From contig CAVYSE010000017.1 in NCBI GenBank assembly GCA_963771075.1, forward strand, positions 104,021 to 168,020: a stretch of DNA of 64,000 nucleotides, in the 5' to 3' direction. A model generated the notes under the pieces. It searched no databases. It was given only the letters and a program-made list of their open reading frames with translations, and was not told the DNA's origin. Origin of the DNA: a candidate division FCPU426 bacterium. GTDB taxonomy: Bacteria; Oederibacteriota; Muellerivitia; Muellerivitales; Muellerivitaceae. Both the position numbers and the translations under genes were made by a program. How positions within the stretch are numbered: position 1 is the first letter of the stretch; each line of letters begins with the position of its first letter. Positions 1 to 27,090 of the stretch are shown here, one piece after another.

Positions 1-1071
1 AGCCAAGCGGGAAAAATAATCGCGCAGAACGGGGACGCTTACGACTATTGCCTGACCAAACGGTACTTTTACCACAATACCGTCAAATTCCTAAGTTATG
101 GGTTGAAAGATCACGTCAAGCTTTTTACCCTGCCCGAAGGACTGGCACCCCTGCAAGCCAACGCCAATAGGGGCCTGCTCTTCATCCTCATGAATGAGCA
201 AAAAGGGCTCGCCCAAAACATTCAATCCCTCTACCCTCACAGCCAGTTTGAGCCGGTCCCGAACCCCAATGGCAACCCCCTGGTTTATTGTGTCCGGGTG
301 CCTGCCAGTGACGTGGCCCAAGCCAAGGGACTTTTCATGCAAACTTCGACTGGCATCACCACTCAATTGCCTGCATTTCCGGAGGGCCTGCCTTCCGGGC
401 CATTCAAGGCTTCCTTACGTGGGACGGTCTATCTGGATCGCACCGCGGTTTACTCCTTTGAAGCGAAGTCCAATGCCTCCGTTTCCTGGTCCATCGGAAC
501 CCATAAGATCCGGTCGGGGCAAACCTTGAGTTTTGCGAAAGGGTTTTACCGGGTCGAGATCAATTTGAACGCGTCCAATGCGGGACCCGTTTCCCTCCAA
601 TTGCTTTCGAAAGCGGGGATTGAATCTCCCGTCGGGCTTGGCAACGACCGTTTCACCACGCTGGACATGGCGAGAGGTTTGAAAGGCTCCTACTTCGACC
701 AAGATAGCGTCGTGGGTGTTCCCCTAGTACAACAATGGGATCCTTTCCTTAACTTTTACGACAGCTCCGACTTCCCCTACCTGAACACGAGGGAATCCAT
801 CCTGTGGGAGGGCCAATTGAACGCTCCCACCACCGGACTCTACAAGTTCCTCGCCCGAACTGATGAATACACGAAAGTTCTCATCGACGGGAAAATCGTT
901 GTCCCTTGGAGTCGTGGCCCCTCCGGGTCTTCTTTCTTAAAGGCTGGCCCCCATCATTTTCAGGTCGTTTTCCAGAAAATTTTGGGTCCCAGTTTGACCT
1001 TATGTTGGACGCCGCCCGGTTCCAAGGATATGGAAGTCATCCCTAACCGTTATTTTGGGTACACCGACTGA
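1..1071 (+). CDS. 5'-truncated GT-C-associated protein; visible part is the soluble region with PA14-like domain(s); paralog of 1124..3763
   Basis: Frame is open from base 1 (SQAGKIIAQNGDAYDYC...). It aligns by eye with the C-terminal third of the next ORF (FPEGLPSGPF vs FPLGLPAGPF; RGLKGSYF vs RGLKGYWY; QKILGPSLTLCW vs KNLGPSFTLVW). PA14-like pattern WEGQLNAPTTGLYKF..TDE...IDG. Confidence 0.8.
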   Translation, partial: SQAGKIIAQNGDAYDYCLTKRYFYHNTVKFLSYGLKDHVKLFTLPEGLAPLQANANRGLLFILMNEQKGLAQNIQSLYPHSQFEPVPNPNGNPLVYCVRVPASDVAQAKGLFMQTSTGITTQLPAFPEGLPSGPFKASLRGTVYLDRTAVYSFEAKSNASVSWSIGTHKIRSGQTLSFAKGFYRVEINLNASNAGPVSLQLLSKAGIESPVGLGNDRFTTLDMARGLKGSYFDQDSVVGVPLVQQWDPFLNFYDSSDFPYLNTRESILWEGQLNAPTTGLYKFLARTDEYTKVLIDGKIVVPWSRGPSGSSFLKAGPHHFQVVFQKILGPSLTLCWTPPGSKDMEVIPNRYFGYTD

Positions 1072-1123
1072 TTCAAGCAAATCGCCGGAACCTATGCCGT
1101 AATTCTTATCAAGGAGACACTGA

Positions 1124-3763: not shown

Positions 3764-3782
3764 TTCGTTAAACAATAATTAT

Positions 3783-3819: not shown

Positions 3820-3863
3820 ATTAAACCAACCTTTCGGGACTATTCTAAGTCCCTTGCTACCAT

Positions 3864-4868
3864 TTATTTAGTTTGGGGCATGATCACCTTGATCATGTAA
3901 ACCGAATCCGCTTCCGCCACAAGAAGTGTTCCATCGGAAGCGAAATTAATTCCACGGGGAGCATTAAATATGACCGCCCCTTTCGCATCCTTCAGGTCGC
4001 CTTGGTATTTGCCTTCCGAATTATAAACCTTAATGAACCCTCCACCCTCACCCGAAGCTACATAGAGGTTCCCTTGGCCGTCCACGGCCACATTGTTCGG
4101 ACGGGCATCAAACTTGATGATTCGTTGGACCTTTCCTGCCCCGTTGAGGAACTTTACCCGTAGATTGTCGTAATCAGGCGCGTAAAAGTTTCCCTTGCCA
4201 TCCGGAACCACTTCATAGACGTTATTGAAACAATCCTTACAATTTCCAGGCATGCCCCACTTTTCAAGCATCTCCCCCGTGGAGGATACCTTAATGATTT
4301 TCTGACCGCCGGTGTCGGCGACATAAAAATTGGTTCCGTCCCAATAGGCCCCCCGGGGCACGTAACAATTCATGGGAGCCAAGCTGATATTTTGGATATT
4401 CTTTCCCGTCACGTCGTAAACCCGGATGCTATTACTTCCGTTGTCCACCACGGTGATTTCGCCCTTGTCATTGGCGGATATATCGGCGAAGCCCACCTTG
4501 TCTTGCGGAGTATTTCCCTGGGCCTCCCCGATGCTCTTAAGGAAATCACCCGTCCGGTTGAAAAGCAGGATCCGGCGTACCTTTCGGTCGGTGACCACAA
4601 ACTTGTCCGATCCTATCGCTGCTACATCCTCAGGCTCGAATTCACCACAGGTTTTCCCCAGGCCGGTAACCTGGCCCACCACCTGGGCCTCGATGTCCTT
4701 TTTGACGTCGGTTCTGAAGAAGAAATAGTTAAAGGCGATAAATAACACGGCGTAGACAATGACTCCAAAAAGAATGAGTCCTTTGTGCCGGGAAATCTTT
4801 GCGGCCCAACCTTCTTTCTTACCCTTGGCCTTGGCGGTTTTCACCGGTACTTTCTTCTTGGCAACCAT
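3864..4868 (-). CDS. Membrane-anchored NHL-repeat beta-propeller protein
   Basis: GGAGG RBS before the ATG at 4868; Lys-rich N-terminus followed by one TM; NHL blades (FYVADTGGQKI, VAVDGQGNLYV, PRGINFASDG). Confidence 0.85.
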   Translation of the reverse strand: MVAKKKVPVKTAKAKGKKEGWAAKISRHKGLILFGVIVYAVLFIAFNYFFFRTDVKKDIEAQVVGQVTGLGKTCGEFEPEDVAAIGSDKFVVTDRKVRRILLFNRTGDFLKSIGEAQGNTPQDKVGFADISANDKGEITVVDNGSNSIRVYDVTGKNIQNISLAPMNCYVPRGAYWDGTNFYVADTGGQKIIKVSSTGEMLEKWGMPGNCKDCFNNVYEVVPDGKGNFYAPDYDNLRVKFLNGAGKVQRIIKFDARPNNVAVDGQGNLYVASGEGGGFIKVYNSEGKYQGDLKDAKGAVIFNAPRGINFASDGTLLVAEADSVYMIKVIMPQTK

Positions 4869-4949
4869 ATCTTCCTCCCTAACCCTGGCTTGATAATCCC
4901 TCATAAACAGAAAGTCATCTTAAACCAACCCTTTAAAAACACGCAAGAA

Positions 4950-5702
4950 TTAAACCCGTTCCCGGCCGGAAACCCGCTTAGAACCTGAGGAAGGAAATGG
5001 CTCCAACCGAAGCCAAAGGGCTCGGCCTAGGTATTTGAGCAGCGTGGCCAATCCGAGTTTAGACTGGCCTTGGGTCCGGTCGATGAACTCGATTGGGAAC
5101 TCCTTTACTCTTAGGCCCGCGCGGTAACAACGGTAAAGGATTTCGGAAACGGTAAAGGGGTCTCGGGCCTTCAAGGTTTCGACCCTTATGGCCCTCAGGG
5201 CCTCCCGGGTGAAGGCCCGGTAACCCGATGTTGGATCCTTCGCCCGAAGCCCGAGAACGGACTTGAGATAATATCGTGCGAAATTGCTAGTGAGCTGGCG
5301 GTAAAGGGGACGCTCCACATCTCGCCCTCCCTGAATGTAACGGCTACCCAAAACCACATCCGCCTCGCCCTTTTCCAGGGCCTTGGCCAGTTGGGGTATA
5401 TATTTGGGTTGATGGGATAGGTCCCCGTCCATTTCCACAACAATTTCTGCTCCCATGGCCAGCGCCTTCACAAAGCCATCTCGGCCTGCCCAACCGCGCC
5501 CCTTGACCGACCGGTCCCGAAGCAACAAGTGCAGTTTTTTGTCTCTTTTTCCAAGTTTTAGGACCTCGTCATAGGTCCCGTCGGGTGAAGTGTCATCCAC
5601 AATGAGGATTCGAGCCTGGGGCACGAATTTGTGAAGTAGTTGGATTAACTGTTTGATATTGGCTCGTTCGTTATAGGTGGGAACCATCACAACCGTTTTC
5701 AA
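4950..5702 (-). CDS. Polyprenol-phosphate mannose synthase-like GT2 (DPM1/Ppm1 family)
   Basis: PTYNERANI, VDDTSPDGT, MDGDLSHQP, VLGSRY and DPTSGYRAF motifs; no TM tail. Confidence 0.85.
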   Translation of the reverse strand: MKTVVMVPTYNERANIKQLIQLLHKFVPQARILIVDDTSPDGTYDEVLKLGKRDKKLHLLLRDRSVKGRGWAGRDGFVKALAMGAEIVVEMDGDLSHQPKYIPQLAKALEKGEADVVLGSRYIQGGRDVERPLYRQLTSNFARYYLKSVLGLRAKDPTSGYRAFTREALRAIRVETLKARDPFTVSEILYRCYRAGLRVKEFPIEFIDRTQGQSKLGLATLLKYLGRALWLRLEPFPSSGSKRVSGRERV

Positions 5703-5863: not shown

Positions 5864-6991
5864 TTAGCGAGCGAGTAGAACCTGTCTTTCGACTGCGGCC
5901 AGCATATCCTTTTCCTTCAAGTTGTCCATACAGGAAATCTTCGCGGTACATTGGTTCTGGTAATAGCATTGGCAGGGGCTCTTGGGAAGGACCTTTTCCC
6001 CCATTCCGTAAAGATCGATTTCCGAGTCGGAAGTGGGTCCAAAATAGGAAACCAGCCTCTTGCCCAAGGCCACTGCCACATGAAGGGCCATCGTATCTCC
6101 CGTCACCATGACCTGGCAGAGATCCACGAGGGAAGCGAATTGGCGTAGGTTGTTTTCTGTACCCGTGGGAATTACCAAACCCTTGAGACTCCTGGCGAGG
6201 GATGGCATCAAGTCCCTTTCCTCCGGCCCCCCGTAAAGCAGAACCCCGGTATGAGGTTGTTTTTTTCTCAGTTGGCGGGCCAGCCAGGCAAACCCATCCA
6301 AACGCCAGCGTTTCATGGGCCATCGGCCTCCTGACCCGATGTTGAATCCGACTATCTTTTTAAACTTGGAAAGTTTGTTTTTGGAAGAAAAGCCTTTGGC
6401 CCATTCCTTTTCCATAGCGGTCAATATCAACTGGGGTTTCTCCCCCCCATACTTAAGGCCCGCCAGTTGGAATAGGTGGGATTGGTAAGTCCGTTGGTTC
6501 GCCCGCTTGACCGTGTCAAAAATGCCCATTTCAAACCACTGTTGCGTTTCTTTTCCCAAGGGAATGACGACTCCCTCCCGGGAGAGGCCGAACCCCTTTT
6601 TCGCCGAACTATTCGCCAAGCAAAGGATTCCCGCCGCCTTTCGGCCCATATCAAAGTTGAAGGCCTGGTCAAAAAAAGTGGAAGCCAGGATTCCTGTCAG
6701 GCCGGCATCCACTCCAAGAAGAACATCGATATAGGGGTTCTTTTCTAAAAGGGGTTTGGAGGAAGGTTCGGTGACCCACCATATGACCGTATTTTTTTTC
6801 TTGGCCTTCAGGGCGGGCAGCAGGGATGTTGAGCGGAGAACATCGCCAGCCGCATCCAGCTTGATGATCAAAACGCGGTACTGCACCGCCTCAAAGCGGG
6901 GGCAATCTCTGCAAACCACCCCTTCTTTCTTATGGGGTAGGCAAGGTTTTTCCCCGGTGAAATGCCGGCAGTTGGATCGGAAAAAAAGCAT
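5864..6991 (-). CDS. Glycosyltransferase family 9 (heptosyltransferase-like)
   Basis: IIKLDAAGDVLRST, KRW, VTGDTMALHVAVALG and FGPT motifs. Confidence 0.85.
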   Translation of the reverse strand: MLFFRSNCRHFTGEKPCLPHKKEGVVCRDCPRFEAVQYRVLIIKLDAAGDVLRSTSLLPALKAKKKNTVIWWVTEPSSKPLLEKNPYIDVLLGVDAGLTGILASTFFDQAFNFDMGRKAAGILCLANSSAKKGFGLSREGVVIPLGKETQQWFEMGIFDTVKRANQRTYQSHLFQLAGLKYGGEKPQLILTAMEKEWAKGFSSKNKLSKFKKIVGFNIGSGGRWPMKRWRLDGFAWLARQLRKKQPHTGVLLYGGPEERDLMPSLARSLKGLVIPTGTENNLRQFASLVDLCQVMVTGDTMALHVAVALGKRLVSYFGPTSDSEIDLYGMGEKVLPKSPCQCYYQNQCTAKISCMDNLKEKDMLAAVERQVLLAR

Positions 6992-7037: not shown

Positions 7038-7057
7038 CCTTGGCCCTTCCATACCCT

Positions 7058-8131
7058 CTAGTGATTTACCTTTTGGGCGGCCGCGTAAAGCAAAAGGCCG
7101 TTGACAACCCCTATGCTTTTCAATTCAAAGCCCGCTTTTTGAAGAGCCTCACCCAGCCGACGCCGGGTAAAATGGTGGATATGACCGCAGCGGTAGCGGT
7201 GGTATCGGCTTCCCCGCAAATATCCCATATAGAGACAGTTCAAATTAAACAGGATAAAAAAGGGGCCTAAGAAATAATCATAAGGAACCGTGATCAGAAA
7301 GGTCCCCTCCTTCTTGAGAACCCTGTTAACTTCCGCCAGGACCGCCTCCAAGTTAAACAGGTGCTCCAACACTTCACTCATCAATACCAGATCTAGGCTT
7401 TGGGGTTTTAAACCGGTCATGGAAAGGTCGGCGCATACCTTATAATCCTCTAGCCTTCCCTGCCGTTTGGCGAATTGGAGCATTTTGGAATTGATATCCA
7501 CCCCAAAAACCGGCAGGTGCTGGGTGTTCCAAAAGCAATTGCCACAGCCCAAGTCGGCCATCTTCATGCCTTTTTTGTAATAGGCACCGACATGGGAATT
7601 GAGCCGCTCGTACCGGGAACGATGGTACCAGGCCCGGAAACGGCTGACCCTGGCCTCGTCGGTCATCCCATCATAGTAATCCTCATCCATTTCTCGGTAT
7701 TCCACCTGCGCCATTCGGGCCGAACTGAAAGTGGAGATGCGATTCAAAAGGGCGTTGGATAAGGCCAAAAGGAAAAGGCAGGAGATAAGGGAGACGAGAA
7801 AGGGCCATTGGAGAGTTCTCATCAAAAACCATAGGAGCATGGAGCTTCCCGCCGAGACACAGAGGCTCATGGCGAGATGGACTGGAAGGGAGGTACGCAT
7901 CCTGATCTCTTGATTCACGTAAACAACACGGTAATAAACGAAATGGAAAGCCTGATTGAGGAATGTTCCCAGGAAAAAGGAGATGAAAGGGGACCAGGCA
8001 TTGGAGGTGAAAATGAAAAGGCCGATCCAAACGGTTCCCAGATTGACCCCTAGGCCTAAAAAACCGCCCAGCAGGAATATTAGGACAGCGGGATAGCGCC
8101 AACGGTGAACAACCTTGTGCTCCGGCATCAT
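7058..8131 (-). CDS. GtrA-like membrane domain fused to a class I SAM methyltransferase
   Basis: About four N-terminal TM segments with a GtrA-like pattern (GLGVNLG...LNQAFHFVYYR); C-terminal ADLGCG, SEVLEHL and GHIHHFT motifs. Confidence 0.7.
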   Translation of the reverse strand: MMPEHKVVHRWRYPAVLIFLLGGFLGLGVNLGTVWIGLFIFTSNAWSPFISFFLGTFLNQAFHFVYYRVVYVNQEIRMRTSLPVHLAMSLCVSAGSSMLLWFLMRTLQWPFLVSLISCLFLLALSNALLNRISTFSSARMAQVEYREMDEDYYDGMTDEARVSRFRAWYHRSRYERLNSHVGAYYKKGMKMADLGCGNCFWNTQHLPVFGVDINSKMLQFAKRQGRLEDYKVCADLSMTGLKPQSLDLVLMSEVLEHLFNLEAVLAEVNRVLKKEGTFLITVPYDYFLGPFFILFNLNCLYMGYLRGSRYHRYRCGHIHHFTRRRLGEALQKAGFELKSIGVVNGLLLYAAAQKVNH

Positions 8132-8916
8132 TTAGCTTTTTTCGCTATTAGGAAATAGGCCACTCCCTTCTCGGTATGGGAAAAGAGGGCCCGGCGAACC
8201 AGTCCAGGGGCCAAGATCCGGGTGAAAATCCTGGGTGTGATAACCCATCGGCCGAGGAAAATCTTGAAAAATTTCGAGAGAAGGGCCGGAATCAACCAAC
8301 GCTCATAGGCATGAAAAGCGTCGATGGAGACAAAATACTCGGACTCCACCATTTTCAACCCCGCCTTCCTGAACCGAATTTCCCAGGTTTTCGCGTCATT
8401 CACATGGTAGTGCTTGAAAATTTTATTTAACCCGTCGATGTAACGCTTTTCCATTCCTCCCATTCCCAAAACTCGGGCAATTCCTCCGAAAAAGGAATGG
8501 GTGTTGTAACATTCGCTTGGGACCGTAATCATCAAACGCCCACCCGGCTTCATGACTCGGGCGATTTCCTTAAGGGCACCATCAATATCCGGAACATGCT
8601 CCAAAACGCAATTGCTGATGACGGTCTTGAAGCTCTTCGAAGGAAAGGGCATGCGGTTGACACTTCCGCAAATCGTCTTTTGGTAAGCCTGGCGCCTTTG
8701 GGCAAGCGCGACTTCCTTTTGATCCAAGTCGATCCCAGCCTCAAGGGGTTCACCAAACACAGTCTGGGCGAAAAACCCATCCCCGCACCCCACGTCTAAC
8801 ACTGGACCTAGTAGAGGTCTTCGGGCGAACTGCTCGCATTCGAGGGATCTCCAAAAAGAAAGGGCCACGGGGCAGGAAGAAAGATAAGCCTTAAAAAATT
8901 CATCGCGGGTTTTCAA
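8128..8916 (-). CDS. Class I SAM-dependent methyltransferase
   Basis: VLDVGCGDG, ISNCVLEHVPD and MKPGG motifs; overlaps the next gene. Confidence 0.85.
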   Translation of the reverse strand: MKTRDEFFKAYLSSCPVALSFWRSLECEQFARRPLLGPVLDVGCGDGFFAQTVFGEPLEAGIDLDQKEVALAQRRQAYQKTICGSVNRMPFPSKSFKTVISNCVLEHVPDIDGALKEIARVMKPGGRLMITVPSECYNTHSFFGGIARVLGMGGMEKRYIDGLNKIFKHYHVNDAKTWEIRFRKAGLKMVESEYFVSIDAFHAYERWLIPALLSKFFKIFLGRWVITPRIFTRILAPGLVRRALFSHTEKGVAYFLIAKKAK

Positions 8917-11172: not shown

Positions 11173-11183
11173 TAGGTCGTCCG

Positions 11184-12095
11184 ATGAAAAAAATAAAATG
11201 GGTCTCCCGATCCTGCCCGGTTTGCGGCTCTCGGGACTCATCCCGCATCTTTGCCGAACCCCGCTACAAACTGGAAAAGTTGGGAGCTTTTGCCTTCTCC
11301 TCTCGCAAAATCCCTGAATATATGCATTATCGGCTGGTGGAATGCCCCTCTTGCGATCTTCTGTACGCCACCCCCCTGCCCTCCCAGAAAGACCTGACCC
11401 GGGCCTATCACGAGGCGGCTTTTGACAGCTCCGAGGAAGCTCATTCCGCAGCCCGCACCTACGGCCGAATTTTGGAGAGATTCTTGGAGGACTTACCGAA
11501 AAAAAGACGGACGCTGGATATTGGGACGGGGGACGGGGCTTTCTTGGAGGAACTTTTATCGAGAGGATTTAAGGAGGTTCGAGGCGTGGAACCTTCCCCG
11601 GCTTCCATCCAAGCCTGCCTTCCCCAGGTAGGGCCCTTGATCCAGCAGGGGCTTTTCGACCAGAAACGATATAAAAGGGAAAGTTTGAGCCTGGTGTCCT
11701 GTTTCCAAACCATAGAACACCTTTTTGATCCCCTTGCCATGGCCAAAGATGCCCAACGGATCTTAACCAAGGGAGGCGCACTTTTTCTGGTCGGGCATAA
11801 CCGCCGAGCCTTCTCGGCAAGAATTTTGGGGCGCAGGTCTCCCATCTTCGACATCGAGCATCTTCAGCTTTTTTCACCCCGAAGCCTGAGGGTGATGCTG
11901 GAACAAGCCGGCTATGAGAGGGTTCGGGTTTTCCCGATCACAAACGCCTATCCCATCCATTACTGGGTGAAACTACTTCCCTTCCCCGGTTCCATGAAAC
12001 CTGCCCTCATCGGCTTCCTGAAGGCAATGGGAATCGGCCGTCTCGTGGTTCCCCTGCCGGCCGGCAACATGGCGGCGGTGGGATTTAAAAAATAA
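11184..12095 (+). CDS. Class I SAM methyltransferase with N-terminal Cys pairs (sugar methyltransferase-like)
   Basis: CPVC...CPSC, LDIGTGDG, FQTIEHLFDP and EHLQLFS motifs. Confidence 0.8.
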   Translation: MKKIKWVSRSCPVCGSRDSSRIFAEPRYKLEKLGAFAFSSRKIPEYMHYRLVECPSCDLLYATPLPSQKDLTRAYHEAAFDSSEEAHSAARTYGRILERFLEDLPKKRRTLDIGTGDGAFLEELLSRGFKEVRGVEPSPASIQACLPQVGPLIQQGLFDQKRYKRESLSLVSCFQTIEHLFDPLAMAKDAQRILTKGGALFLVGHNRRAFSARILGRRSPIFDIEHLQLFSPRSLRVMLEQAGYERVRVFPITNAYPIHYWVKLLPFPGSMKPALIGFLKAMGIGRLVVPLPAGNMAAVGFKK

Positions 12096-12106
12096 CCGAT
12101 CATTTC

Positions 12107-13221: not shown

Positions 13222-13237
13222 GTTCCGGGATTGATCC

Positions 13238-16093: not shown

Positions 16094-16834
16094 TTATATC
16101 TTCTTGGGATCGTTTTCTATTCGAGAGCAAACATAATACTGCGCCCCCAGGGGGAGCCAGCTCAACCAGCGATCCAAAGCGGAAAACACAGGACTCCTAT
16201 ACGGCGTGAAAATAAGATAACCCGTTTCCGTGAGACGGCAGACCGCTTTTCGGAAAAGCCGTCGGACTTTTCCCATTCCTAAGAGGACCGCGTCATCATC
16301 CAACTCGCAACGGTGAACCGCCACCTGGGTCAATGGATTGAGGGGGTTATGCTCGAACACGATCACTAACCCGCCTTTTTTGGTGACTCGGATCATCTCC
16401 TCCGCGAACCTGTCCCAACCTTCCGGAACCACATGGTGCATGACGCATATGGCGAAGGTCACATCCATGGAATGATCTTTGTAGGGGAGGGTTTTTCCAG
16501 CGTAATACCGGTAGGCGGCCTTGGGGTTCAGGGCCTCTGCCTTTTCCACCACGCCCCGGTCCACGTCAATCCCGTGGACCTTTTTGAAATGGCCCGTGAG
16601 ATAGTAATCGGTAAGACCAACCCCGCAACCCACGTCTAGGATATTCAACTTGGAAGGATCCCCCAGGGAACGGCGGACCAATTCCAAAAGTTTTTTCACC
16701 TTTGCCTCGGTGAAAAAGGCCAGGTCCTGTCCAATGAAGGCTATGGATTTTTGGATTTCCTGGCGGTAAGTCTCTTTGTAGTACCCGAAATTGACCCTTA
16801 AATCATAAGGCCTTTTTGATTTTTTCGATGGCAT
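16094..16834 (-). CDS. Class I SAM-dependent methyltransferase
   Basis: ILDVGCGVG, CVMHHV and FEHNPLNPLT motifs. Confidence 0.85.
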   Translation of the reverse strand: MPSKKSKRPYDLRVNFGYYKETYRQEIQKSIAFIGQDLAFFTEAKVKKLLELVRRSLGDPSKLNILDVGCGVGLTDYYLTGHFKKVHGIDVDRGVVEKAEALNPKAAYRYYAGKTLPYKDHSMDVTFAICVMHHVVPEGWDRFAEEMIRVTKKGGLVIVFEHNPLNPLTQVAVHRCELDDDAVLLGMGKVRRLFRKAVCRLTETGYLIFTPYRSPVFSALDRWLSWLPLGAQYYVCSRIENDPKKI

Positions 16835-16964: not shown

Positions 16965-18011
16965 CTAATTCGACTGCTGGACCGGAAGGTCATAGACGGA
17001 GATGGCGTTCTTTTCGGCAGCAATCAGTTTGCCATCGGTCGTCACGCATAATCCCACAACCGTGCGGTAGGCCAAGTCGGAATCGGGATTTTGCACCGCC
17101 AAATCGCCCAAATATTTCCCGTCGATCGCGGAATAGACCTGGATAAATTGGTCGTTATTGAAGCAAACGTAAAGACGACCTATGCCGTCCAATGCAAGCG
17201 CCACGGGCGCGGATCGGAGGTTGATACGCTGGATCACTTGACCCGAGGGGTCCATGATCTTCACCCGGTTGTTCCCCGAATCGGCGATGTACAGGAAATT
17301 ACGGGCGTCCGATATCCCCGCCATGGGATTGCTCCACTGGTTCTTGCCCTTGCCCGCCCCCGAGTAGATCTTGTCCGAGGACCCATCCGGCCTCATGATG
17401 ACTACCCGGTTGCTTCCGGTGTCGGAAATAATGAAATTATCACCCACGCATCCCAATCCGACCGGGTTGTAAAAATAGCCTGTGGGGGAAGCGTCCACTG
17501 TCGGGAGGGGCTTCCCTTCCGGGGTGAACCCATGAATTAGGATCTTACTCGAATTATCCAAAACATGAATGTTGCCCTTGGTATCGGAAGCGATCCCGCT
17601 CAAGCCATTGCGGGGGTCTTTGGGACCGACCTGGGGGCTGAAGGACCTCACGAGCTTTCCCTCTTCCGTGAATTCCAGGATACGGTAGTTGGGGTTATCC
17701 GAAAGGGCGACTCGGTTCTGGGTAGTGGCGCAAATTCCCCAAGATTTGAAAGGCCCGCAAGAGAGCTTGTCACCCGAGAAACGGTTCACCAGGTGGATAT
17801 ACAATTCTTTTTTTGCCGGATAAAAGTTAATTTTATCCTTTACCAAAAAGCCGATGACGGCCACTACCGCCAAAACACCCAGGATCAGCAGGCCGGAACT
17901 CGAAGAAGAGGACCCTTGAGTTGTGGAAGATACCGTCGAAGGGGTTTCCACCGGCATGACCGCGATGGGGGTTGCGGTTTTCGATTTTTTGACATTCTTT
18001 TTTGGAGCCAT
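16965..18011 (-). CDS. Membrane-anchored NHL-repeat beta-propeller protein
   Basis: Lys-rich N-terminus, Ser/Thr linker, one TM; blades ISDTGSNRV, YIADSGNNRV, ALDGIGRLYV; GAGGTG RBS. Confidence 0.85.
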   Translation of the reverse strand: MAPKKNVKKSKTATPIAVMPVETPSTVSSTTQGSSSSSSGLLILGVLAVVAVIGFLVKDKINFYPAKKELYIHLVNRFSGDKLSCGPFKSWGICATTQNRVALSDNPNYRILEFTEEGKLVRSFSPQVGPKDPRNGLSGIASDTKGNIHVLDNSSKILIHGFTPEGKPLPTVDASPTGYFYNPVGLGCVGDNFIISDTGSNRVVIMRPDGSSDKIYSGAGKGKNQWSNPMAGISDARNFLYIADSGNNRVKIMDPSGQVIQRINLRSAPVALALDGIGRLYVCFNNDQFIQVYSAIDGKYLGDLAVQNPDSDLAYRTVVGLCVTTDGKLIAAEKNAISVYDLPVQQSN

Positions 18012-18280: not shown

Positions 18281-21106
18281 TTAGAGATTAAACGAATTCC
18301 AAATGGATTTTTCCGTTCCCTTGGGGGCGCTTTCCTGTCGAATGAGAATATCAGGAAGCTTCTGGGACTTTTGATAGCAAGTCACCACCTTCAACCGGTG
18401 GTCTCCGGCCTCCAGAGGGATTACTTTTCGGAGTTCCAGCGGGGAGGCAAGAACGTAGCCATCGGGGTATCGGTTAAACCGTGCAAAAAAAGCGTCCATC
18501 CATTCATGCCCATCGATCCAAATTTTGGTTCTCCCATCGGCCTTCAGGTTCACCTCATATTTTCCGCCCTTCTCCATATGGAACTTTCCCTCCACTTGGA
18601 CCGCCTCGGTATCCATGTTGATGGGTGGAGCGGTGGCATCGGTCACGCTGACGGCTCGGTCCTGAATGTCCAGGATTCCAAATCCCAAGCCGGACTTGCC
18701 GGAAGCATAGCGGCGCTCCCAAAATGGCGCGGTGATGGGTTTGACCTCAAAGAGCGGCTCCTGCGGAACCGGGGGAAGGGGTTTGCCGGGTTGCGCCGCT
18801 CGTCCACTCGTGATCCGGGCGTATCTCTTTTGTGCTTTCGAGTAAAGTTCCGTCGCGTTGGAAATGTCCGTTACCGGAATCTGGCACCGTAGGGCCAGGG
18901 CGATTTCTCCCGCGACCGGATCAGTCCCTTTTACGGGATTAAACTGGGCTGCGGGGGTTTCTTTTTGGATTCGATCCTTGGTCGCGGAATCCGCGGCCTC
19001 AAAATAAACCACCACATCGTGGCCTTTGGTTTCTTTCGGGTCTTGATACAAGAAATTGGTGGGATGAAGAACACAAGCCGGATGGCCTTCATAGAGGGCC
19101 CCCGCGACCGATCCTCCGACGCCATCGGTCAAAAAGACAAGATTTCCGTGGTCGATGTCCTGGCGGGCTTGCCGTTCCACCGCGATATAGCGGTCCTGAT
19201 ATTTCAAAAACCATTGGCCATAAATATGTTGTATATCCACTCGGACCGTCCAGACCGCAAACCCCGCAAGGAAGAGGCAGAAGAGTTTTGTTTCCCATCG
19301 GTTCGGGGAATTTTGTGGCAAACGCGACCATAGCTCTTCCAATCCCATCGCCCCCAGAACCAGGAATGGGACCACACAACCGATCAATCTTCCTGTGTGG
19401 GCCTGCTGGGTGAGGAAGTAGGGGGTGATCCCCGCCAGCGCCGTCAAAAGCAGGCCGATTCTTTCCCAGCTCAGCCTGGCTAAGATCACGGCCAAACCCA
19501 GGGCAATGAGGACTATTTCCGAATATCCAAAAAAGGAGTCTTTCGGGGCCAGCATGTCCAACCGGTCGGTTCCGTTAAAAAAGAGGGTTTGGAGGGCCAG
19601 CACGGCTTCCGAGTAGATCCGCGAGAAGTAACCCATCCATCCAATTCCCCCCGGAGTCACGATATAGGCCTGCACATTCTTCACGAGGGACTCATGGGTC
19701 ATGACCGGAAAGGTGAGGATCACAGACATCCAGGACCCCGCGAGCCAGCCGGTCCAGGTTCCACTTTGCGACCAGTCGCGTGGTTTTCGAAGGATGTAAA
19801 CGGCAAAAACCAGGTAGAGGGCGAGGAGAACCGCCGGGGGCCCACAGTAAACCCAATCGCAGAGATAAGTAAACAAATTGTTCGCCGGGAAAACGCCGAT
19901 GGTATAAAGAAAGTAAAGTGTGAAGTAGGCGAGGGTGGTTAAGAGCAGGATTTTGGCGGAAAAATCGAGCCGCCGTTCCTTGCTATCTCGGGCCCAAACC
20001 CAGACCCATGACACGAACAGGAAAAATGGAATGAAAATCCTGTAGGGAGTGTAGGTGTAGGCGCCAAATGAAAGGGCCAAGCCCCATTGAACAAAACGAG
20101 CGGGAGTGGGTTTGCGCAGGAGGCGCACAAAAAACAACAGGGCGAGGGCCACCCCCAAGGACAGGCTTTGGAGGCTCAGTCCCTGAAGGGTTCTCATGAT
20201 TAGGGGTTTGCTGACAGCTCCCAAAGCTGCGGCCCAGAGGCCCAACCGGCGATTCAGTAGTTCCTTACCGATGAGGTATAGGGCACAAATGGTCGCCAGG
20301 TCCACGGCGACCCCGGCTATCCTCTGGGTAACGAGTGAAGTCATCGAGGGAAAAAGTTTCCATAGAAAAACGCAAAGATAAGCGAAAAAGGGTTCCCGGT
20401 AGCCCAGGGGGAAAACAAAGGCATCCCCAAAATCGTTGAGGTCCGCAACCCTTCGCACATCCAGGATTTCGGTCGCTTGGACTGACCCATAGGCCCCCAT
20501 CGGTGAAAACCCTTGATAGAGGCAAAGATAAGCCCCCAATCCCAAAAAGAGGGTGAGCAAACCATAAGCCACAGGCGCCGAAAGATCGGTGCCAGACGAT
20601 CTTTCCGGCAAGATCCTGAAACCAATGATCAATCCAACCCATAAAAACAACAAGACGGGGTAAGATTCCTTAAAGGGAAGCCGCAAGGCCAAGGGCATCA
20701 TCCAGCTAAAACTGGGGAAACTGATCAGGAGGATTGAAAAACAGGCTATCAGCAAAAGAAAGAGGATGGCAGCTCCCCCGGTTAAACGGGACGTGTCGAT
20801 GAAAATCTTTTGGAAACCGGGGATTCGGCGGATGGGAATGCGCCCCTGGCGATACAGCTGGATCATGAGGATCACGAGGGCGGTGGTCAGAAGAATCTTG
20901 GTGGAGGCATTGAGATCATGGCGGGTCAGGAGAAAGACCGCTCCCGCCAGGAGCGCCACGGGAAGCCCCAGTTCCCGAAAATCGAAAGAGGGCTTTTTCG
21001 CGCCGGGCTGACCCGATGGGGAAAGAGGCCGGGAATCCGGAGGAAGACGATCCGGTCTTTCCCCTTTTGATGTTTTTTTCTTTTTAGGCGAAGGCATAGG
21101 GCTCAT
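18281..21106 (-). CDS. ArnT/PMT-like (GT-C) membrane protein with a C-terminal PA14-like domain
   Basis: Multi-TM region with YREPFFAY, LYLIGKEL and GAYTYTPYR; C-terminus GKYEVNLKADGRTKIWIDG...LEAGDH. Confidence 0.75.
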   Translation of the reverse strand: MSPMPSPKKKKTSKGERPDRLPPDSRPLSPSGQPGAKKPSFDFRELGLPVALLAGAVFLLTRHDLNASTKILLTTALVILMIQLYRQGRIPIRRIPGFQKIFIDTSRLTGGAAILFLLLIACFSILLISFPSFSWMMPLALRLPFKESYPVLLFLWVGLIIGFRILPERSSGTDLSAPVAYGLLTLFLGLGAYLCLYQGFSPMGAYGSVQATEILDVRRVADLNDFGDAFVFPLGYREPFFAYLCVFLWKLFPSMTSLVTQRIAGVAVDLATICALYLIGKELLNRRLGLWAAALGAVSKPLIMRTLQGLSLQSLSLGVALALLFFVRLLRKPTPARFVQWGLALSFGAYTYTPYRIFIPFFLFVSWVWVWARDSKERRLDFSAKILLLTTLAYFTLYFLYTIGVFPANNLFTYLCDWVYCGPPAVLLALYLVFAVYILRKPRDWSQSGTWTGWLAGSWMSVILTFPVMTHESLVKNVQAYIVTPGGIGWMGYFSRIYSEAVLALQTLFFNGTDRLDMLAPKDSFFGYSEIVLIALGLAVILARLSWERIGLLLTALAGITPYFLTQQAHTGRLIGCVVPFLVLGAMGLEELWSRLPQNSPNRWETKLFCLFLAGFAVWTVRVDIQHIYGQWFLKYQDRYIAVERQARQDIDHGNLVFLTDGVGGSVAGALYEGHPACVLHPTNFLYQDPKETKGHDVVVYFEAADSATKDRIQKETPAAQFNPVKGTDPVAGEIALALRCQIPVTDISNATELYSKAQKRYARITSGRAAQPGKPLPPVPQEPLFEVKPITAPFWERRYASGKSGLGFGILDIQDRAVSVTDATAPPINMDTEAVQVEGKFHMEKGGKYEVNLKADGRTKIWIDGHEWMDAFFARFNRYPDGYVLASPLELRKVIPLEAGDHRLKVVTCYQKSQKLPDILIRQESAPKGTEKSIWNSFNL

Positions 21107-21163: not shown

Positions 21164-21925
21164 TCAGGCCGGGGGCAACCGGTAAACCCAAACGTTATAG
21201 CTTCCCGCGACGACCAAATAACCCTCCGGCGTCACGCAAAGATATTTCGCGTCCAAATAAGTCCGGTTCACGTCCGGTTTCTCGACCGTCAGGTCTCCCA
21301 GAAATTGGCCAGTGGCCCCCGAAAAGACCTGGATGAAATTATAGTTCCCATACCCCACATAAACGCGATCCTGCTTGTCCAAGGCGATGGTCCAGGGTTT
21401 TTCCTTGAGTTGGAGGCGGTACATAAACACGCCCTTGGAATCGATGACCTTGAGCCTCAAGTAATCGGACTCCACCTGGTAAGTACGCCCATTCACGGGC
21501 TCCGTTATGGAGTTTTCTGGATTGAAGGTGCCGAACTTATCGATCATTTCGGAATTCAGGAACTGCCCCTTTTGATCGAATAGAAAAACGGTTTTCCCAT
21601 CGGCGCTCAACACGGCAATCTTGCCCTCCCCGGGACAACAAATCCCCCGTATGGTGAGCGGCCCGGATTTTTGACCCGTTCCGTCGAAATGGCACATGAG
21701 ATAAACCATGATCTTCGGGTGGGGCCAGCAACTAACCCCTCCCTGGTTAAAACGGTCCCAACCAAAACTGCAAGCCAATAAAAGGGGGATGCCGATCACC
21801 CAGGGCATCAGTCGGCTCCACAAAGACAAGGAAGCAGGAGGGGATAGGTTTTCCACGGGAAGGATTGGGGATTCCGGTACGGTGGAAGCGGCGTTGGTTT
21901 TAGAGGTGTTTTTTTGTTTATTCAT
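21164..21925 (-). CDS. Short membrane-anchored NHL-like protein, paralog of 16965..18011
   Basis: Shared C-terminal blades (IALDKQDRVYV, FIQVFSGATGQFLGDL vs FIQVYSAIDGKYLGDL). Confidence 0.75.
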   Translation of the reverse strand: MNKQKNTSKTNAASTVPESPILPVENLSPPASLSLWSRLMPWVIGIPLLLACSFGWDRFNQGGVSCWPHPKIMVYLMCHFDGTGQKSGPLTIRGICCPGEGKIAVLSADGKTVFLFDQKGQFLNSEMIDKFGTFNPENSITEPVNGRTYQVESDYLRLKVIDSKGVFMYRLQLKEKPWTIALDKQDRVYVGYGNYNFIQVFSGATGQFLGDLTVEKPDVNRTYLDAKYLCVTPEGYLVVAGSYNVWVYRLPPA

Positions 21926-22195: not shown

Positions 22196-24871
22196 ATGCC
22201 GCGTCCATTAAAAAAATATCAACCCGACTCGAACCGAAGTTCAACCACTGGACAACCGGCGGGAGAAAATCTGAACCAGGCCCCGTCCCCCCACCCCAAA
22301 TCCCCCTGGGATATTCCGATTTACGTCCTGATGGGCTTGTCCTTCCTCTTGTTGTTCCTCCGAAAGACCGGGTGGGGAGAAGATCTCTTGGCCCTTTCCA
22401 TCCTTTTATTCTTTACGAAAAACAGCTTGGTTCGATGGCTGGCCAAGCCCTTGCGCTGGCTCTTCTTCCTCACCCCCTTCAAGCTCTTTATCTTGCTTCT
22501 GTTATGCTGGACGGGGTTTTCGCTAGTTTTGTTGACCTTCCCCTCCCACCGCTGGATGATCCCCCAGGCCACCGCCCTCCCCTTTCAATACTCACTGGAG
22601 GCGATGTTCGCCTGTTGGGCGGGAATCGTTGTGATCATGAAGCTCTTCCCCTCCAGTTCCACAGTCCCCAAGGATCTTTCTCCCTGGACAGCCGGGTTCT
22701 GGCTCCTTCTCATCCTGGGCGTGGATGCCTATTTGATCTTCTACAACGTGGACAAGCCCATTGGGGCGGCCTCGGAGGACACCGTGGTTTTTTCGGCCTT
22801 TGCCCGGCTGGTGTTCGACCTGAAAGATTACCGTTTCTTTTTCAACGGCGGCGCAGGCAACAGCTGGCAGCCTTTCTACCAATGGCTAATGAATTTGCTT
22901 TGGTACGTGAACCCGGATACCCCGGGAGTCCTCCTGGAAAGGATCACTTCCGCGTGCGTGAACCTTGCCATCGTGATCTTTCTATACCTGGCCGGCAAGG
23001 AAGCCGCCGGAAGACGGGTCGGGGTCTTCGCGGCAGGACTCGCCACGATCTGCCTGCCCCTTCTGACCAAAACCCTCGCCTGCCAGCACGGCAACACCCA
23101 CACCCTCTTTGTCGCCCTGTCCCTTTGGCTATTCTTCCGGACTCTCCGCTCCCCCAAACTCATTAATTTTTTGCTTTGGGGAACGTCGGTGGCCCTGGGT
23201 ATATACGCCTATATCATGTTCAGGCCCCTAGTCCCGCTCTTTGTTTTCAGCTCCCTTCTCTGGATCTATTTGAAACGAAAGGAAGAACGCGTCATTGATA
23301 AATCCGTCCACTTGGCTGTTTTCCTGACCCTCTTGATCTTCTTCTTTTACATCTTCTTTACCAACCACCTTTACGCGACCGACAACGACCTGGCCCGCAT
23401 GGTCAACGTCTTCGGGCCATGGCTGCCCTGCATGGTTGTGGGTCTCTTTGTGGGGATCGTCCTTGCCTCCGCCCCACGCCTGATGTCCGTCGCCGACCGG
23501 TATCCGGGTCTGCTGGGTTGGGTGGCCGGTACCTGGATCTGCATGATCATTTCCTTCCCTCAGATGGCGAATCCCCACGAGCTATGGAACATGGTCTCGG
23601 CGGGAGCCTCCGGCAGGCCCATGACCTTCAAATCCGTCCAGGTTTACACCTACTTCTTTGATGTTCATTCCTGCGATTGGATCAACCTGCATTTCCCCAA
23701 CGATTCCTTTTTCGGTTTCACCGAATTGATATTCGGTGCGCTCGGTCTGGCCCTTGCGCTGGTTCGGCCCAACCTGAACCGGGTTTACCTCCTCCTGGCA
23801 TTTCTATCGACTTTCGGGGTCTGGCTTTTGTCCGAATCCACCCACTCGGAGCGAATGATGGTTTGCGTTCCCCCCTTCCTGTTGCTTGGCGCCATGGGTG
23901 CGGGGCAGGTTTGGGACTGGATCACCCTGGCCACCCGAAGCGTCTTGGCCCGGGTCATCGCCGCAGTTTTCCTGGTGGGCCTGTTCGAATGGACGGCCCA
24001 GGGCGACTTTGACCGCGTACACAACCAATGGGCCGGATGCGTTTATGACGTGGATAACGCGGTTTGCCAGAGGGCCGCGAACGACCAAAAAGAGGGAAAA
24101 AGGGTCTACATCGGTCCCGACCTGACCTGGACCCGCATTTCCTACATGCTTTATGAGAACCACCCGGTGCAGGTCCTGAAACACGTCAACCCGATCTATG
24201 TGGCCCCCAATGACAAACCCCAGGACCTGGTAATCTATTTCCGGGGTAAGGACGACCATCAACTGGACGACCAGATGGCCAAGGATATTCAGGCCGCATT
24301 CCCGAAGGTTACTTTCGAGACCATCCGAAATCCGTTTGACGAAAACGGCTGGCCCCTAGGTTCCCGTTGCCAGATCGCTTTCGCGGACATCCTGCGCAAC
24401 CGAAAACAGACCATCTTTCAGGTCAAGAAGATCAAACCGCCCGTCTGGACAAGGGAATACTTCGCCGCCGACACGGGCATGCGTCCTGCCGTGCTGGATT
24501 GGGTGGATTGCGTTCCCCATATCTCGGATCCCTTCCCCACCGACATCAAAATGGATTACGAGGGATACCGCTACCAGGGGGTTATCCACGTGAAAAAAGG
24601 GGGGAAATACAAGATCAATTGCGCCAATGATTCCCGGACCATCCTGAAGATCGACGGGAGGGATGTATTAGACATGGTTTTCCCGCGAACTGAGCATTTC
24701 ACCACACCCGCCCGCACGGACACCAATACCCTCAACCTAGAAGCGGGCAACCACACAATCCAGGTCACCGGCCTGATCCCCCAGACACACCAGCCCCCAG
24801 TAATCACCTTGAGTTCCTTAGGCACCCCGGACCTAAAGGACCTATCCCTTTGGTCCTCTTTCGACTTTTAA
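22196..24871 (+). CDS. ArnT/PMT-like (GT-C) membrane protein with a C-terminal PA14-like domain; paralog of 18281..21106
   Basis: PNDSFFGFTE vs PKDSFFGYSE; LYLAGKE; GGKYKINCANDSRTILKIDG...LEAGNH; similar C-termini (SLWSSFDF vs SIWNSFNL). Confidence 0.75.
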   Translation: MPRPLKKYQPDSNRSSTTGQPAGENLNQAPSPHPKSPWDIPIYVLMGLSFLLLFLRKTGWGEDLLALSILLFFTKNSLVRWLAKPLRWLFFLTPFKLFILLLLCWTGFSLVLLTFPSHRWMIPQATALPFQYSLEAMFACWAGIVVIMKLFPSSSTVPKDLSPWTAGFWLLLILGVDAYLIFYNVDKPIGAASEDTVVFSAFARLVFDLKDYRFFFNGGAGNSWQPFYQWLMNLLWYVNPDTPGVLLERITSACVNLAIVIFLYLAGKEAAGRRVGVFAAGLATICLPLLTKTLACQHGNTHTLFVALSLWLFFRTLRSPKLINFLLWGTSVALGIYAYIMFRPLVPLFVFSSLLWIYLKRKEERVIDKSVHLAVFLTLLIFFFYIFFTNHLYATDNDLARMVNVFGPWLPCMVVGLFVGIVLASAPRLMSVADRYPGLLGWVAGTWICMIISFPQMANPHELWNMVSAGASGRPMTFKSVQVYTYFFDVHSCDWINLHFPNDSFFGFTELIFGALGLALALVRPNLNRVYLLLAFLSTFGVWLLSESTHSERMMVCVPPFLLLGAMGAGQVWDWITLATRSVLARVIAAVFLVGLFEWTAQGDFDRVHNQWAGCVYDVDNAVCQRAANDQKEGKRVYIGPDLTWTRISYMLYENHPVQVLKHVNPIYVAPNDKPQDLVIYFRGKDDHQLDDQMAKDIQAAFPKVTFETIRNPFDENGWPLGSRCQIAFADILRNRKQTIFQVKKIKPPVWTREYFAADTGMRPAVLDWVDCVPHISDPFPTDIKMDYEGYRYQGVIHVKKGGKYKINCANDSRTILKIDGRDVLDMVFPRTEHFTTPARTDTNTLNLEAGNHTIQVTGLIPQTHQPPVITLSSLGTPDLKDLSLWSSFDF

Positions 24872-25011
24872 GGGTATCTCCTAGCTCCTCAGCTGAAACC
24901 CCTCGTACAATTCAACTCTTCGCTCATGTTTTTAAAAGGGGGAAACTCATCCGGTCTGCAATTCGATCGGCTTATTAAATTAGGGATTATCCTGTCCACA
25001 GTTCGAAATCA

Positions 25012-27090
25012 CTATTGGGCATGGAACCAGCCTTGCTGTTTGACGAACTCCAATCCCCTCTTGGCTTCCGCGTGGTTGGGATCCAGATCCAGTACCTTCT
25101 GGAACATCTCACCCGCCTTTTGCCCCTGCCCCAGGTTCAGGGCCGCCACCGCGGCGTTGAAATAAGCATCCTTGTATTTCGGATCTAATAGCAAAGCTTT
25201 GGCGTAATAATCCAATGCTTCCGAGTTCCTGCCCAGATGCACCAGGGCATTTCCCACGTTGAAGGCATAAATCGGATCAGTTGGGTTAAAGTTCTGGCAC
25301 CAGGCATATTGTTGGAAAGACTTAAGATAATCCTGAAGAATTTGTAACTGATCCTGGGGGTTGGGTGGCTTGGAAAGTCTCGCCGTCGCGTCATCCGCCC
25401 GGTTCTCGAAATAAACTCCCAACCCATTGCGGTCCACGGCGTAATCTTCTAGGATCCATTGGCGGGTGCGCATGTCTATCGGGATGCTGGAGTCCGACAG
25501 ATGGCGCATTCGAAGGGCATCCCATAAATATCGGGCCTTGAGCTCATCCAACGGAGGCAGGGTTTGGTTGATGAAACATTGGTAAACCAACCCGTAGGGC
25601 AAGAGGTTCTGGACGGGCTGGGTCTTGGAATCGATCTGGTTATAGCTTAAGAACTGAGGTATCGAGTTGTTCTTGAGGATGAGCCAGGACATGAGGTTGG
25701 AAATCGATTCGTTGCCCATGGGCTGCCGGGAAAAGGGCACGGAAAGTTTCGGGTGCTGAAAATTCAAGTCACGCCTTATCCAGTCCATGGGTAGGCCATC
25801 CACCCCCACCACCGCCAAGTCGGGCCGGAACCTTTCCACCCATTGGAAATACCAGGAAGGAAAGACCAGCCCGTCTCCCCGGCAAAAGAAAAGCGAGTTC
25901 TCCGGAAGACACTTGAAGCTGTTCAGGGTGAAATCATAAACGTAACTATAGTTCGTCTGCCGGTCTTTGAGGGTTCGGAAAGTCCCCAACCCAAGGGCCC
26001 ATAAAGCAAGCAGGACCGCAACGCCCGCCAAAAATCTTTTCTTAAGTGCCGGTTCCAATTGGTCTTGAAACTGTCCTATTCCCCATCCCAAAAAGATCAA
26101 AACCATCAAATGGGTCGGGAGGATATAGGAACTGATCAGGTAAAACCGGTCCACTGAAAGATGCAGGTAAAGGCTGACGGTCAATAGAAGGCAGGCCCAC
26201 CCCGTGATTAAACCTATCGCCAGGGGTACTTTCTTCTTTAATAGAGGCAGTGCGAAAACCAAGGCCGCAAGCGAAAGACCCGCGAATTCCACCCACTGTC
26301 CCGTGAAAGCGTACTGGGCCTGTGAGAACCAATCCGACAGGGACCCATTGGCCTCGGCTCCCTGGTATTCCCGACGGGCCAGGACAAAAAGGAAATTCTT
26401 CAAATTCCAGGGGCTTCCCCAGTTCAGGAGGGGCCCCCGGGTGGAAAGAATAGGCAAGGCCAGCCAAAGGGACGAGCCCAGGGTGAAACAAGCCGCCATC
26501 GGGAACAGGCCCCCTTCTTTCACCGAACGTTTTTCCCTTTCCAAGTAGGCCATCGCGACCAAACCCGGCGCAGAAACGACTAGGGTCATCCAATGGTGGG
26601 TGAAAAAGATTCCAGCCAGGAAAGCCGCCAACCAGGTTTTCCCTTCCCGCAGTGACCAAAAGAGGCCTAAGAGAAATAGGGCGTTCAATTCGTAAACCTC
26701 GCCCTTCGCGCTCAAGGCTGCGGGATAAAGGCTGGCACCCGTAACCCACATCAGGGCGATAGGCACGGCGAACCTGGGGTTAACACGCAACGCTTTTACA
26801 AGGAAAAGGAAAAGCAAAACACAAACAATAGCGGCAAGAAAGGCCGATAAAAGGTTCACCCGAAAGGGAATCCCTCCCAACGAAAACAATGTGGCGATGT
26901 GACCCAGCAGGGTCAGGAAGGGATAACCGGGAGGGTGCGGCACGCCCAAGGTCGCGGCGGCGGTAATGGTTTCCGGGCTGTCGTCCCCGTAAAAGGATGG
27001 GTTCAGGGCAGACAACAGAAAATGGAAAGCGGCTAAGAAAAGTAAAAAAGGAACCAGGAAACGGATGAACCCGGAGGATAATTTCATCAA
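25012..27090 (-). CDS. DUF2723 / TMEM260-like GT-C glycosyltransferase with C-terminal TPR repeats
   Basis: GDDSPE...TLGVPHPPGYP signature, RVNLLSA and EVYELN motifs, many TMs; TPRs (AFNVGNAL..LGR..EAL.YY.KAL.LDP). Confidence 0.85.
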   Translation of the reverse strand: MMKLSSGFIRFLVPFLLFLAAFHFLLSALNPSFYGDDSPETITAAATLGVPHPPGYPFLTLLGHIATLFSLGGIPFRVNLLSAFLAAIVCVLLFLFLVKALRVNPRFAVPIALMWVTGASLYPAALSAKGEVYELNALFLLGLFWSLREGKTWLAAFLAGIFFTHHWMTLVVSAPGLVAMAYLEREKRSVKEGGLFPMAACFTLGSSLWLALPILSTRGPLLNWGSPWNLKNFLFVLARREYQGAEANGSLSDWFSQAQYAFTGQWVEFAGLSLAALVFALPLLKKKVPLAIGLITGWACLLLTVSLYLHLSVDRFYLISSYILPTHLMVLIFLGWGIGQFQDQLEPALKKRFLAGVAVLLALWALGLGTFRTLKDRQTNYSYVYDFTLNSFKCLPENSLFFCRGDGLVFPSWYFQWVERFRPDLAVVGVDGLPMDWIRRDLNFQHPKLSVPFSRQPMGNESISNLMSWLILKNNSIPQFLSYNQIDSKTQPVQNLLPYGLVYQCFINQTLPPLDELKARYLWDALRMRHLSDSSIPIDMRTRQWILEDYAVDRNGLGVYFENRADDATARLSKPPNPQDQLQILQDYLKSFQQYAWCQNFNPTDPIYAFNVGNALVHLGRNSEALDYYAKALLLDPKYKDAYFNAAVAALNLGQGQKAGEMFQKVLDLDPNHAEAKRGLEFVKQQGWFHAQ

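Follow-up and report, generated by a model that had tools for sequence, protein, structure and literature searches.

A variable locus of GT-C/PA14 glycosyltransferases in a candidate division FCPU426 bacterium and its possible role in lipid-linked glycosylation of threonine-rich secreted proteins

In streptococci, pairs of a GT-A and a GT-C enzyme glycosylate Ser/Thr-rich regions; according to the available part of the source, the Pgf system (PgfS, PgfE, PgfM1, PgfM2) and the GtrB/PgtC2 pair combine a GT-A lipid-sugar synthase with an epimerase and with extracytoplasmic GT-C enzymes (PMC12041528). In Caldicellulosiruptor bescii the GT39 protein Cbes_1864 is needed to glycosylate secreted enzymes with alternating Thr-Pro linkers (PMC6151902), and in haloarchaea Agl23 is the putative flippase of the hexose-phosphate-dolichol used for extracellular N- and O-glycans (PMC11182771), both as given in the available sections of these papers. 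Related literature includes PMC12871550, PMC7031533 and PMC10434106, likewise available in part. Here we describe a 27-kb gene cluster of a candidate division FCPU426 bacterium (assembly GCA_963771075.1), which opens a 64,000-nucleotide stretch of contig CAVYSE010000017.1 (positions 104,021 to 168,020), called the window below. It carries four GT-C enzymes with a PA14 domain (genes 1 to 4), glycosyltransferases predicted to make lipid-linked sugars and a TMEM260-like GT-C enzyme (Table 1). The ArnC/ArnT and GtrA/GtrB/GtrC systems act on lipid A or O-antigen and have no PA14 or NHL parts; they share the same donor logic, and ArnT is a top fold match of gene 2, whereas the GtrA likeness in the window is weak.

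The likeness to the streptococcal systems lies in the lipid-sugar synthase, the epimerase and the extracytoplasmic GT-C enzymes directed at Ser/Thr-rich regions. The streptococcal GT-C enzymes are, however, of the YfhO type, whereas the YfhO type of this phylum does not follow the repeats described below; as far as the available text of PMC12041528 goes, those systems also have no PA14, NHL or DUF2298 parts and far fewer acceptors and enzymes. With C. bescii the common feature would be a membrane GT-C enzyme acting on secreted proteins with Thr-alternating stretches; as described in the available part of PMC6151902, that is a single enzyme of a Gram-positive organism with its predicted sugar-binding module at the N-terminus. 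The haloarchaeal Agl22/Agl23 pathway (TIGR03663, with partner TIGR03662/DUF2298), as presented in the available part of PMC11182771, has a parallel in an Agl23-family gene in a DUF2298 operon on another contig (C1), whereas the GT-C enzymes of the window itself score only 21-28 bits against the TIGR03663 cut-off of 126. In a partial literature search no description was found of PA14-fused bacterial GT-C enzymes, of the transketolase cassette or DUF2298 described below, or of a link between this enzyme set and Thr-x stretches. Glycosylation of Ser/Thr-rich regions by a lipid-linked sugar and a GT-C enzyme is thus known, and these enzyme families and this scale appear to be new. The co-occurrence of TIGR03662 and TIGR03663 and the Pfam grouping of DUF2298 with GT-C families have already been noted by curators.

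With a probability of about one half, we read the cluster as one half, the variable one, of a periplasmic system that O-glycosylates the alternating-threonine (Thr-x) stretches of about 150 secreted proteins from lipid-linked sugars. The constant half of this system would lie elsewhere in the genome, and TMEM260 would not be its starter. From folds, motifs, gene order and distributions we infer the acceptor, the sugars and the order of steps.

The distribution across 81 genomes of the phylum, all searched for the Thr-x codon pattern and for six protein families, is central to this reading. Thr-x repeats occur in 63 of the 81 genomes and in no member of families f4, f5, f12, f14 and f16. The family of gene 2, to which gene 1 also belongs, is found in all 63 repeat-bearing genomes (all E <= 1.3e-43); in the 18 repeat-less genomes there are only two partial matches (E 4e-30 and 3e-21), counted as 0/18 by a line between full and partial matches that was drawn after inspection of the data. 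DUF2298 has the same distribution (63/63 against 0/18), with two copies in most genomes. The NHL family is present in 61/63 and 1/18, respectively, with an alignment that also matches other NHL proteins.

Gene 2 is the one folded among the four GT-C/PA14 genes (pLDDT 92.7). Its model shows a GT-C membrane domain, a small alpha/beta domain and two beta-sandwich domains, the last of which has a confirmed PA14 fold (Z 14.4), and it resembles AglB (Z 27.8, root-mean-square deviation (rmsd) 4.7, 375 aligned positions), STT3 (Z 27.0), ALG12 (Z 24.2), ArnT (Z 23.9) and Pmt (Z 23.7). The GT-C fold that the initial annotation had proposed for the membrane domains is in this way borne out for gene 2 by structure prediction (Z 22-28), and on its model gene 2 is a GT-C superfamily enzyme. 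In the first outer loop D151 is invariant (114/114 family rows), and a second motif, G-D-x-N-x-R-H-N, lies in a later loop. Both persist in distant members, where the first-loop motif is usually DE. Such a motif is that of protein O-mannosyltransferases, for which the published paper names D77 of Pmt1 only. At the corresponding place gene 1 has Asp and gene 4 a Glu-Asp acidic pair. Gene 3 lacks the Asp that all 27 gene-3/4-type relatives covering this loop possess, and from its sequence it is possibly inactive.

The genome holds six genes of the gene-2 family, four of them outside the window. Fusions of PMT_2 and PA14 are common among Atlas clusters, most of all in Chloroflexota and Acidobacteriota, and one Chloroflexota member of the gene-2 family is fused to an NHL propeller. 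Genes of the gene-3/4 type form tandem arrays of three to six GT-C/PA14 genes in relatives (L035-L038, L042; G004, G020, G012, G018), whose members fall into recurring subtypes with first-loop motifs of their own. In distant families a flippase-like LPG_synthase_TM gene adjoins or lies near a GT-C/PA14 gene (L239, L240, L242).

Candidate acceptors are the 152 open reading frames (ORFs) with at least six consecutive Thr-x units. The same test gave 14 ORFs for P and no more than 6 for each of S, A, L, E, K, D and N; the high counts for V and G probably mirror the same DNA read on its other strand. About 21,500 Thr/Ser-x units were counted in 151 ORFs. Since many Thr-x proteins end in a domain of the type IX secretion system (T9SS) sorting type, they would cross the periplasm. 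Such a domain ends most of them (for the window protein it lies at 41805-42200, 25.7 bits, cut-off 23), and 84 of the 91 ORFs with a T9SS-type end by our own pattern carry repeats. Two relatives, G014 and G024, have over 3,000 pattern matches each, far above most others.

The second GT-C family that follows the repeats, DUF2298, was also modelled (pLDDT 92.9). The model matches STT3 (Z 14.3, rmsd 7.3, 481 aligned), the first 46 rows of the fold search are all GT-C enzymes or domains of them, and the next unrelated row has Z 5.2. Foldseek gave E 6e-7 to DPY19 and 9e-7 to AglB, and the AglB C-terminal domain was matched with Z 10.3. By its model DUF2298 is therefore a GT-C fold with an STT3/AglB-like C-terminal domain; E123 is invariant in the family. 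Searches by sequence and profile matched it to neither a solved structure nor the gene-2 family, and this kinship is seen in the fold alone.

The C1 operon (128-144 kb; G000, L089) contains a GT2, a PMT_2 gene, two DUF2298 genes, two NHL genes, a further GT2 and the Agl23-family gene (141187-143589; 245 bits, cut-off 126). In relatives its PMT_2 and DUF2298 parts are read in a single frame of about 2060-2200 aa; here a frameshift within a low-complexity linker separates a PMT_2 ORF (955 aa) from a DUF2298 ORF (1110 aa). The DUF2298 operon is in two relatives close to the genes of the window: in G025 it runs straight into an NHL-GT9-GT2-GT-C/PA14 series and in G029 no more than 15 kb separates it from GT9-GT2-GT-C/PA14.

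The same enzymes are associated in Chloroflexota. DUF2298 occurs in all 34 genomes with a strong match to the gene-2 family, against a base rate of 104/151, and by hand count it lies within 9 kb of a gene-2-family gene in at least 7 of the 13 best genomes. Repeats are present in 90 of the 104 genomes with DUF2298 and 24 of the 47 without it, and in 63 of the 71 with the gene-2 family and 50 of the 79 without; the three top gene-2-family scores belong to the three top repeat counts. We take the link among the enzymes (GT-C/PA14, NHL and DUF2298) as firm and that of the enzymes to the Thr-x acceptor as moderate.

The nature of the acceptor is where a different explanation has to be weighed. The GT-C/PA14 enzymes may decorate an envelope glycan or glycolipid, the lipopolysaccharide (LPS) core in this organism and some other lipid-anchored glycan in Chloroflexota. 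GT9 would then make the acceptor and GT2 the donor by a logic analogous to the ArnC/ArnT or GtrB/GtrC pairs, and the match with Thr-x repeats would reflect shared ancestry. We regard this as possible, though rather unlikely. Fold comparison does not separate the two kinds of acceptor, as ArnT, AftD and ALG9/12 match gene 2 about as well as the protein-acting enzymes do. No other part of the locus is as stable as the GT9-GT2 pair, whose genes lie at most 2 kb apart in 8/12 genomes and are also paired in four f7/f10 loci; LpxC is present in the genome, and 16-28 kb upstream a second GT9 accompanies an MsbA-like transporter and genes resembling those of the heptose pathway. Many repeat-bearing families with GT-C/PA14 genes (f3, f8, f11, f13, f15, f17-f21), however, yielded no close GT9 orthologue (E <= 1e-58), and the first-loop motif of most distant members is DE, as in protein O-mannosyltransferases. 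The five best Chloroflexota genomes contain full-length gene-2-family members but gave no LpxC match, which speaks for an acceptor other than lipid A for this enzyme family; an exclusive lipid A/LPS target was the case that the initial annotation had set against its proposal.

A number of observations weigh against the O-glycosylation reading. On the rpoB tree (28 genomes and an outgroup; G054 has no rpoB match, and G051, in pieces, was left out) two changes suffice for the 18 repeat-less genomes, so that the distribution amounts to about two independent events and not 81, and the gain or loss of any gene on these branches would give the same pattern. G033 and G044, both counted among the 63 repeat-positive genomes, have no more matches than the reversed-pattern control, and the repeat-less G028 has a large GT-C set with 47 PMT_2 matches. 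In Chloroflexota neither association with repeats is significant when only genomes of at least 3 Mb are compared (p 0.26 and 0.29), and DUF2298 is absent from 13 genomes that have 20 or more pattern matches. Gene 2 has as its most conserved neighbour a GT9, of a family tied to the LPS core, in an organism with LpxC. Genes 3 and 4 gave no match to the gene-2 profile at E 1e-10 and, being outside it, receive no direct information from it. PA14 domains can bind sugars in a calcium-dependent way through an acidic pair; this pair is not conserved in the gene-2 family, where 25% and 27% of 110 rows have Asp at its two positions, and a lectin role of the domain is unproven.

What is conserved of the locus is a small core. 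Relatives, found by an alignment search of contigs after a single-protein search of contigs had matched nothing, keep the site between the TMEM260/ptsI end and a block of sugar ATP-binding cassette (ABC) transporter genes and metK. In 11 of 17 family members GT9 shares a contig with a gene-2-family gene, at most 31 kb away; the remaining six are split over contigs or lack a GT9 match. The cargo varies and includes GH3, GH125, spermidine-synthase-like, acyltransferase and GDP-mannose dehydratase genes as well as tandem GT-C arrays. The conserved part is the GT9-GT2-GT-C/PA14 core only, so that the co-occurrence of the genes in relatives stands for this core and fails for the 27 kb as a whole. 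The proposal of one self-contained assembly line in 27 kb does not survive this comparison, nor the count of GT-C-like genes in the genome: 33 PMT_2, 9 TMEM260-like and 13 YfhO matches, and 50 distinct GT-C-like ORFs, which one round of BLAST raised to 71, fragments included (about 70 genes).

This variability could also mark a hotspot, flanked by ptsI and the sugar-ABC/metK block, in which unrelated glycosylation genes serving several products have gathered. The stretch changes strand five times, and is thus not one operon; its cargo differs among relatives; the transketolase cassette mostly travels alone, with a GT-C/PA14 match in 1 of 80 loci; and the many GT-C-like ORFs elsewhere in the genome fit as well. 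What does not fit is that the core is fixed and that, in two phyla, GT-C/PA14, NHL and DUF2298 genes are distributed alike and physically linked; as an account of the whole locus we consider a hotspot improbable. It probably holds for the cargo and not for the core.

The initial annotation had placed the TMEM260-like enzyme at the start of the chain, adding the first mannose to Thr-rich proteins which four PA14 enzymes then extend. Human TMEM260 (PDB 9rql; PMC10214176, available in part) and the window protein have the GT-C, Rossmann-like and tetratricopeptide repeat (TPR) layout in common (E 1e-23 over residues 13-455). Five of the six tested residues are kept (D52, H67, R264, Y267 and D441, in R-G-D441) and Ser stands at the place of the mannose contact R355; according to the available part of the source, the former five are essential in the human enzyme and R355A keeps about 20% activity (bioRxiv 10.64898/2026.03.17.711096). 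The gene also flanks the locus in several relatives. The human enzyme differs in R355, and the bacterial genome has eight TMEM260-like paralogues (D52 and H67 in 8/8, Asp at 441 in 7/8). The family is abundant in all 18 repeat-less genomes, and in 15 repeat-rich genomes of families f7 and f10 it is missing (5) or marginal (10; E >= 7e-16). With gene 3 lacking its first-loop Asp in addition, such a self-contained line is very improbable. From its residues we predict the TMEM260-like enzyme to be an active protein O-glycosyltransferase with acceptors other than Thr-x, and as a starter candidate for these repeats it is lowered.

YfhO-type enzymes were found in 18/18 repeat-less genomes and in 0/15 of f7 and f10. 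Neither they nor the TMEM260-like enzymes follow the repeats in their distributions, and both were rejected as chain starters. An expansion of GT-C genes tracking the repeats was rejected too: PMT_2 matches number 15-19 in each of five repeat-rich genomes and range from 4 to 47 in five without repeats.

Under the O-glycosylation reading, GT2 enzymes would first load single sugars onto polyprenyl phosphate. That donors are lipid-linked, as initially proposed, is supported. For the core GT2 the sole match at E <= 1e-8 among solved structures is the dolichol-phosphate-mannose synthase (DPMS) 5mlz (E 7e-27), with a D-G-D motif aligned with the DXD-type motif of DPMS, and it is predicted from sequence to be a polyprenyl-phosphate sugar synthase of this type. 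The GT2 fused to an epimerase has PgfS as its best model (E 1e-64, 219 bits, cut-off 500), followed by ArnC, also below cut-off. One of the loaded sugars would likely be unusual and come from the transketolase-epimerase-methyltransferase cassette.

The lipid-sugar would then be flipped, more likely by the Agl23-like protein of C1 than by the GtrA-like fusion. The GtrA-like domain of the initial annotation is weakly supported: PF04138 is matched below its cut-off in 2 of 5 homologues (E 0.11 and 0.02; 13-16 bits against a cut-off of 26.1; profile positions 2-117), while the top two Atlas matches are GtrA (score 0.75). A profile search found no GtrA above cut-off in the genome, and the flippase role of the fusion is unproven.

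The constant DUF2298 GT-C pair and the conserved genes 1 and 2 would put the first sugars on the Thr-x stretches, DUF2298 being favoured as the starter because it is near-fixed at two copies. The fast-diverging genes 3 and 4 may add further, strain-specific sugars, and the NHL propellers are likely periplasmic partners. The comparison in this way singles out two unnamed GT-C families, the gene-2 family and DUF2298, from about 70 genes.

A wider extension, which we hold only tentatively and would rather doubt, is that DUF2298, GT-C/PA14, NHL and the Agl23-like flippase form one old undescribed pathway for mucin-like Thr-x coats in this phylum and Chloroflexota, started by DUF2298. DUF2298 was also matched in Haloferax and Methanosarcina. 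We know of no enzyme assigned to the O-glycosylation of Thr clusters in archaeal S-layer proteins; if the extension were true, DUF2298 would be a candidate, given DUF2298/Agl23 in both genera. One organism with DUF2298 is the genetically tractable Haloferax volcanii.

Table 1. Features of the window discussed in the text, in window coordinates.
Feature	Coordinates	Strand	Remarks
GT-C/PA14 enzyme 1, 3' part	1..1071	+	PMT_2+PA14; first-loop Asp kept
GT-C/PA14 enzyme 2, 879 aa	1124..3763	+	PMT_2+PA14
Single-helix NHL beta-propeller protein	3864..4904	-	missed in the initial annotation
GT2, DPM-synthase (dolichol-phosphate-mannose-synthase) type; predicted polyprenyl-phosphate sugar synthase	4950..5702	-	conserved core
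GT9, heptosyltransferase-like, Cys-rich start	5864..6991	-	conserved core; missed in the initial annotation
Membrane domain with weak GtrA likeness, fused to S-adenosylmethionine (SAM) methyltransferase	7058..8131	-	
SAM methyltransferase	8128..8916	-	
NDP-sugar epimerase/dehydratase fused to PgfS/ArnC-type GT2	9145..11172	+	member of widespread four-gene cassette
SAM methyltransferase	11169..12095	+	transketolase cassette member
Split transketolase, two genes	13238..14922	-	cassette member; here inverted relative to epimerase-GT2
SAM methyltransferase	16094..16834	-	
Second single-helix NHL beta-propeller protein	16965..18011	-	missed in the initial annotation
GT-C/PA14 enzyme 3, fast-diverging branch	18281..21106	-	PMT_2 below Pfam cut-off (E 0.003)
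Short protein like the NHL protein at 16965	21164..21925	-	likeness by eye only; no Pfam match; missed in the initial annotation
GT-C/PA14 enzyme 4, fast-diverging branch	22196..24871	+	PA14 below Pfam cut-off (E 0.0026)
TMEM260-like GT-C with TPRs	25012..27090	-	22 bases behind ptsI, same strand
Example candidate acceptor, 1490-aa secreted protein, long Thr-x stretch, T9SS-type C-terminal domain	41805..46277	-	

The gene inventory of the initial annotation was confirmed by sequence and Pfam scan, with five GT-C-type genes, two lipid-sugar GT2 enzymes, an epimerase, four methyltransferase domains and a split transketolase all in place. Gene 1 is cut by the window edge, as reported, and in the genome it is whole (990 aa, window coordinates -1901 to 1071, starting 1901 bases before the window). 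None of the 24 proteins scanned matched a Wzx, Wzy, WaaL or ABC exporter family, and the view that this is not an O-antigen locus holds, as Wzx/Wzy-type loci sit on contigs C23 and C18 instead. ClpS and an outer-membrane barrel, which had gone unremarked, are encoded in the stretch as well, and a YfhO-type GT-C gene lies just upstream of gene 1.

The cassette of transketolase N, transketolase C, epimerase-GT2 and methyltransferase (9145-14922 in the window; loci L154-L233) is widespread. Among its 37 loci of 9 kb or more the transketolase is present in 36 and the methyltransferase in 33, and of 61 flanking membrane proteins 12 match PMT_2, GT87 or DUF6311 and about half match nothing.

Further upstream (window -28446 to -11030; L073, L001) there are SIS, two PfkB, HAD, GT9 and MsbA-like genes and three unannotated membrane proteins of 440-570 aa. 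At the other end, positions 32882-48377 and 48472-64000 form a 15.5-kb inverted duplication with 94% identity that reaches the contig end and doubles the block of rpoN and phosphotransferase system (PTS) genes together with one Thr-x protein; it possibly represents two strains joined in the assembly.

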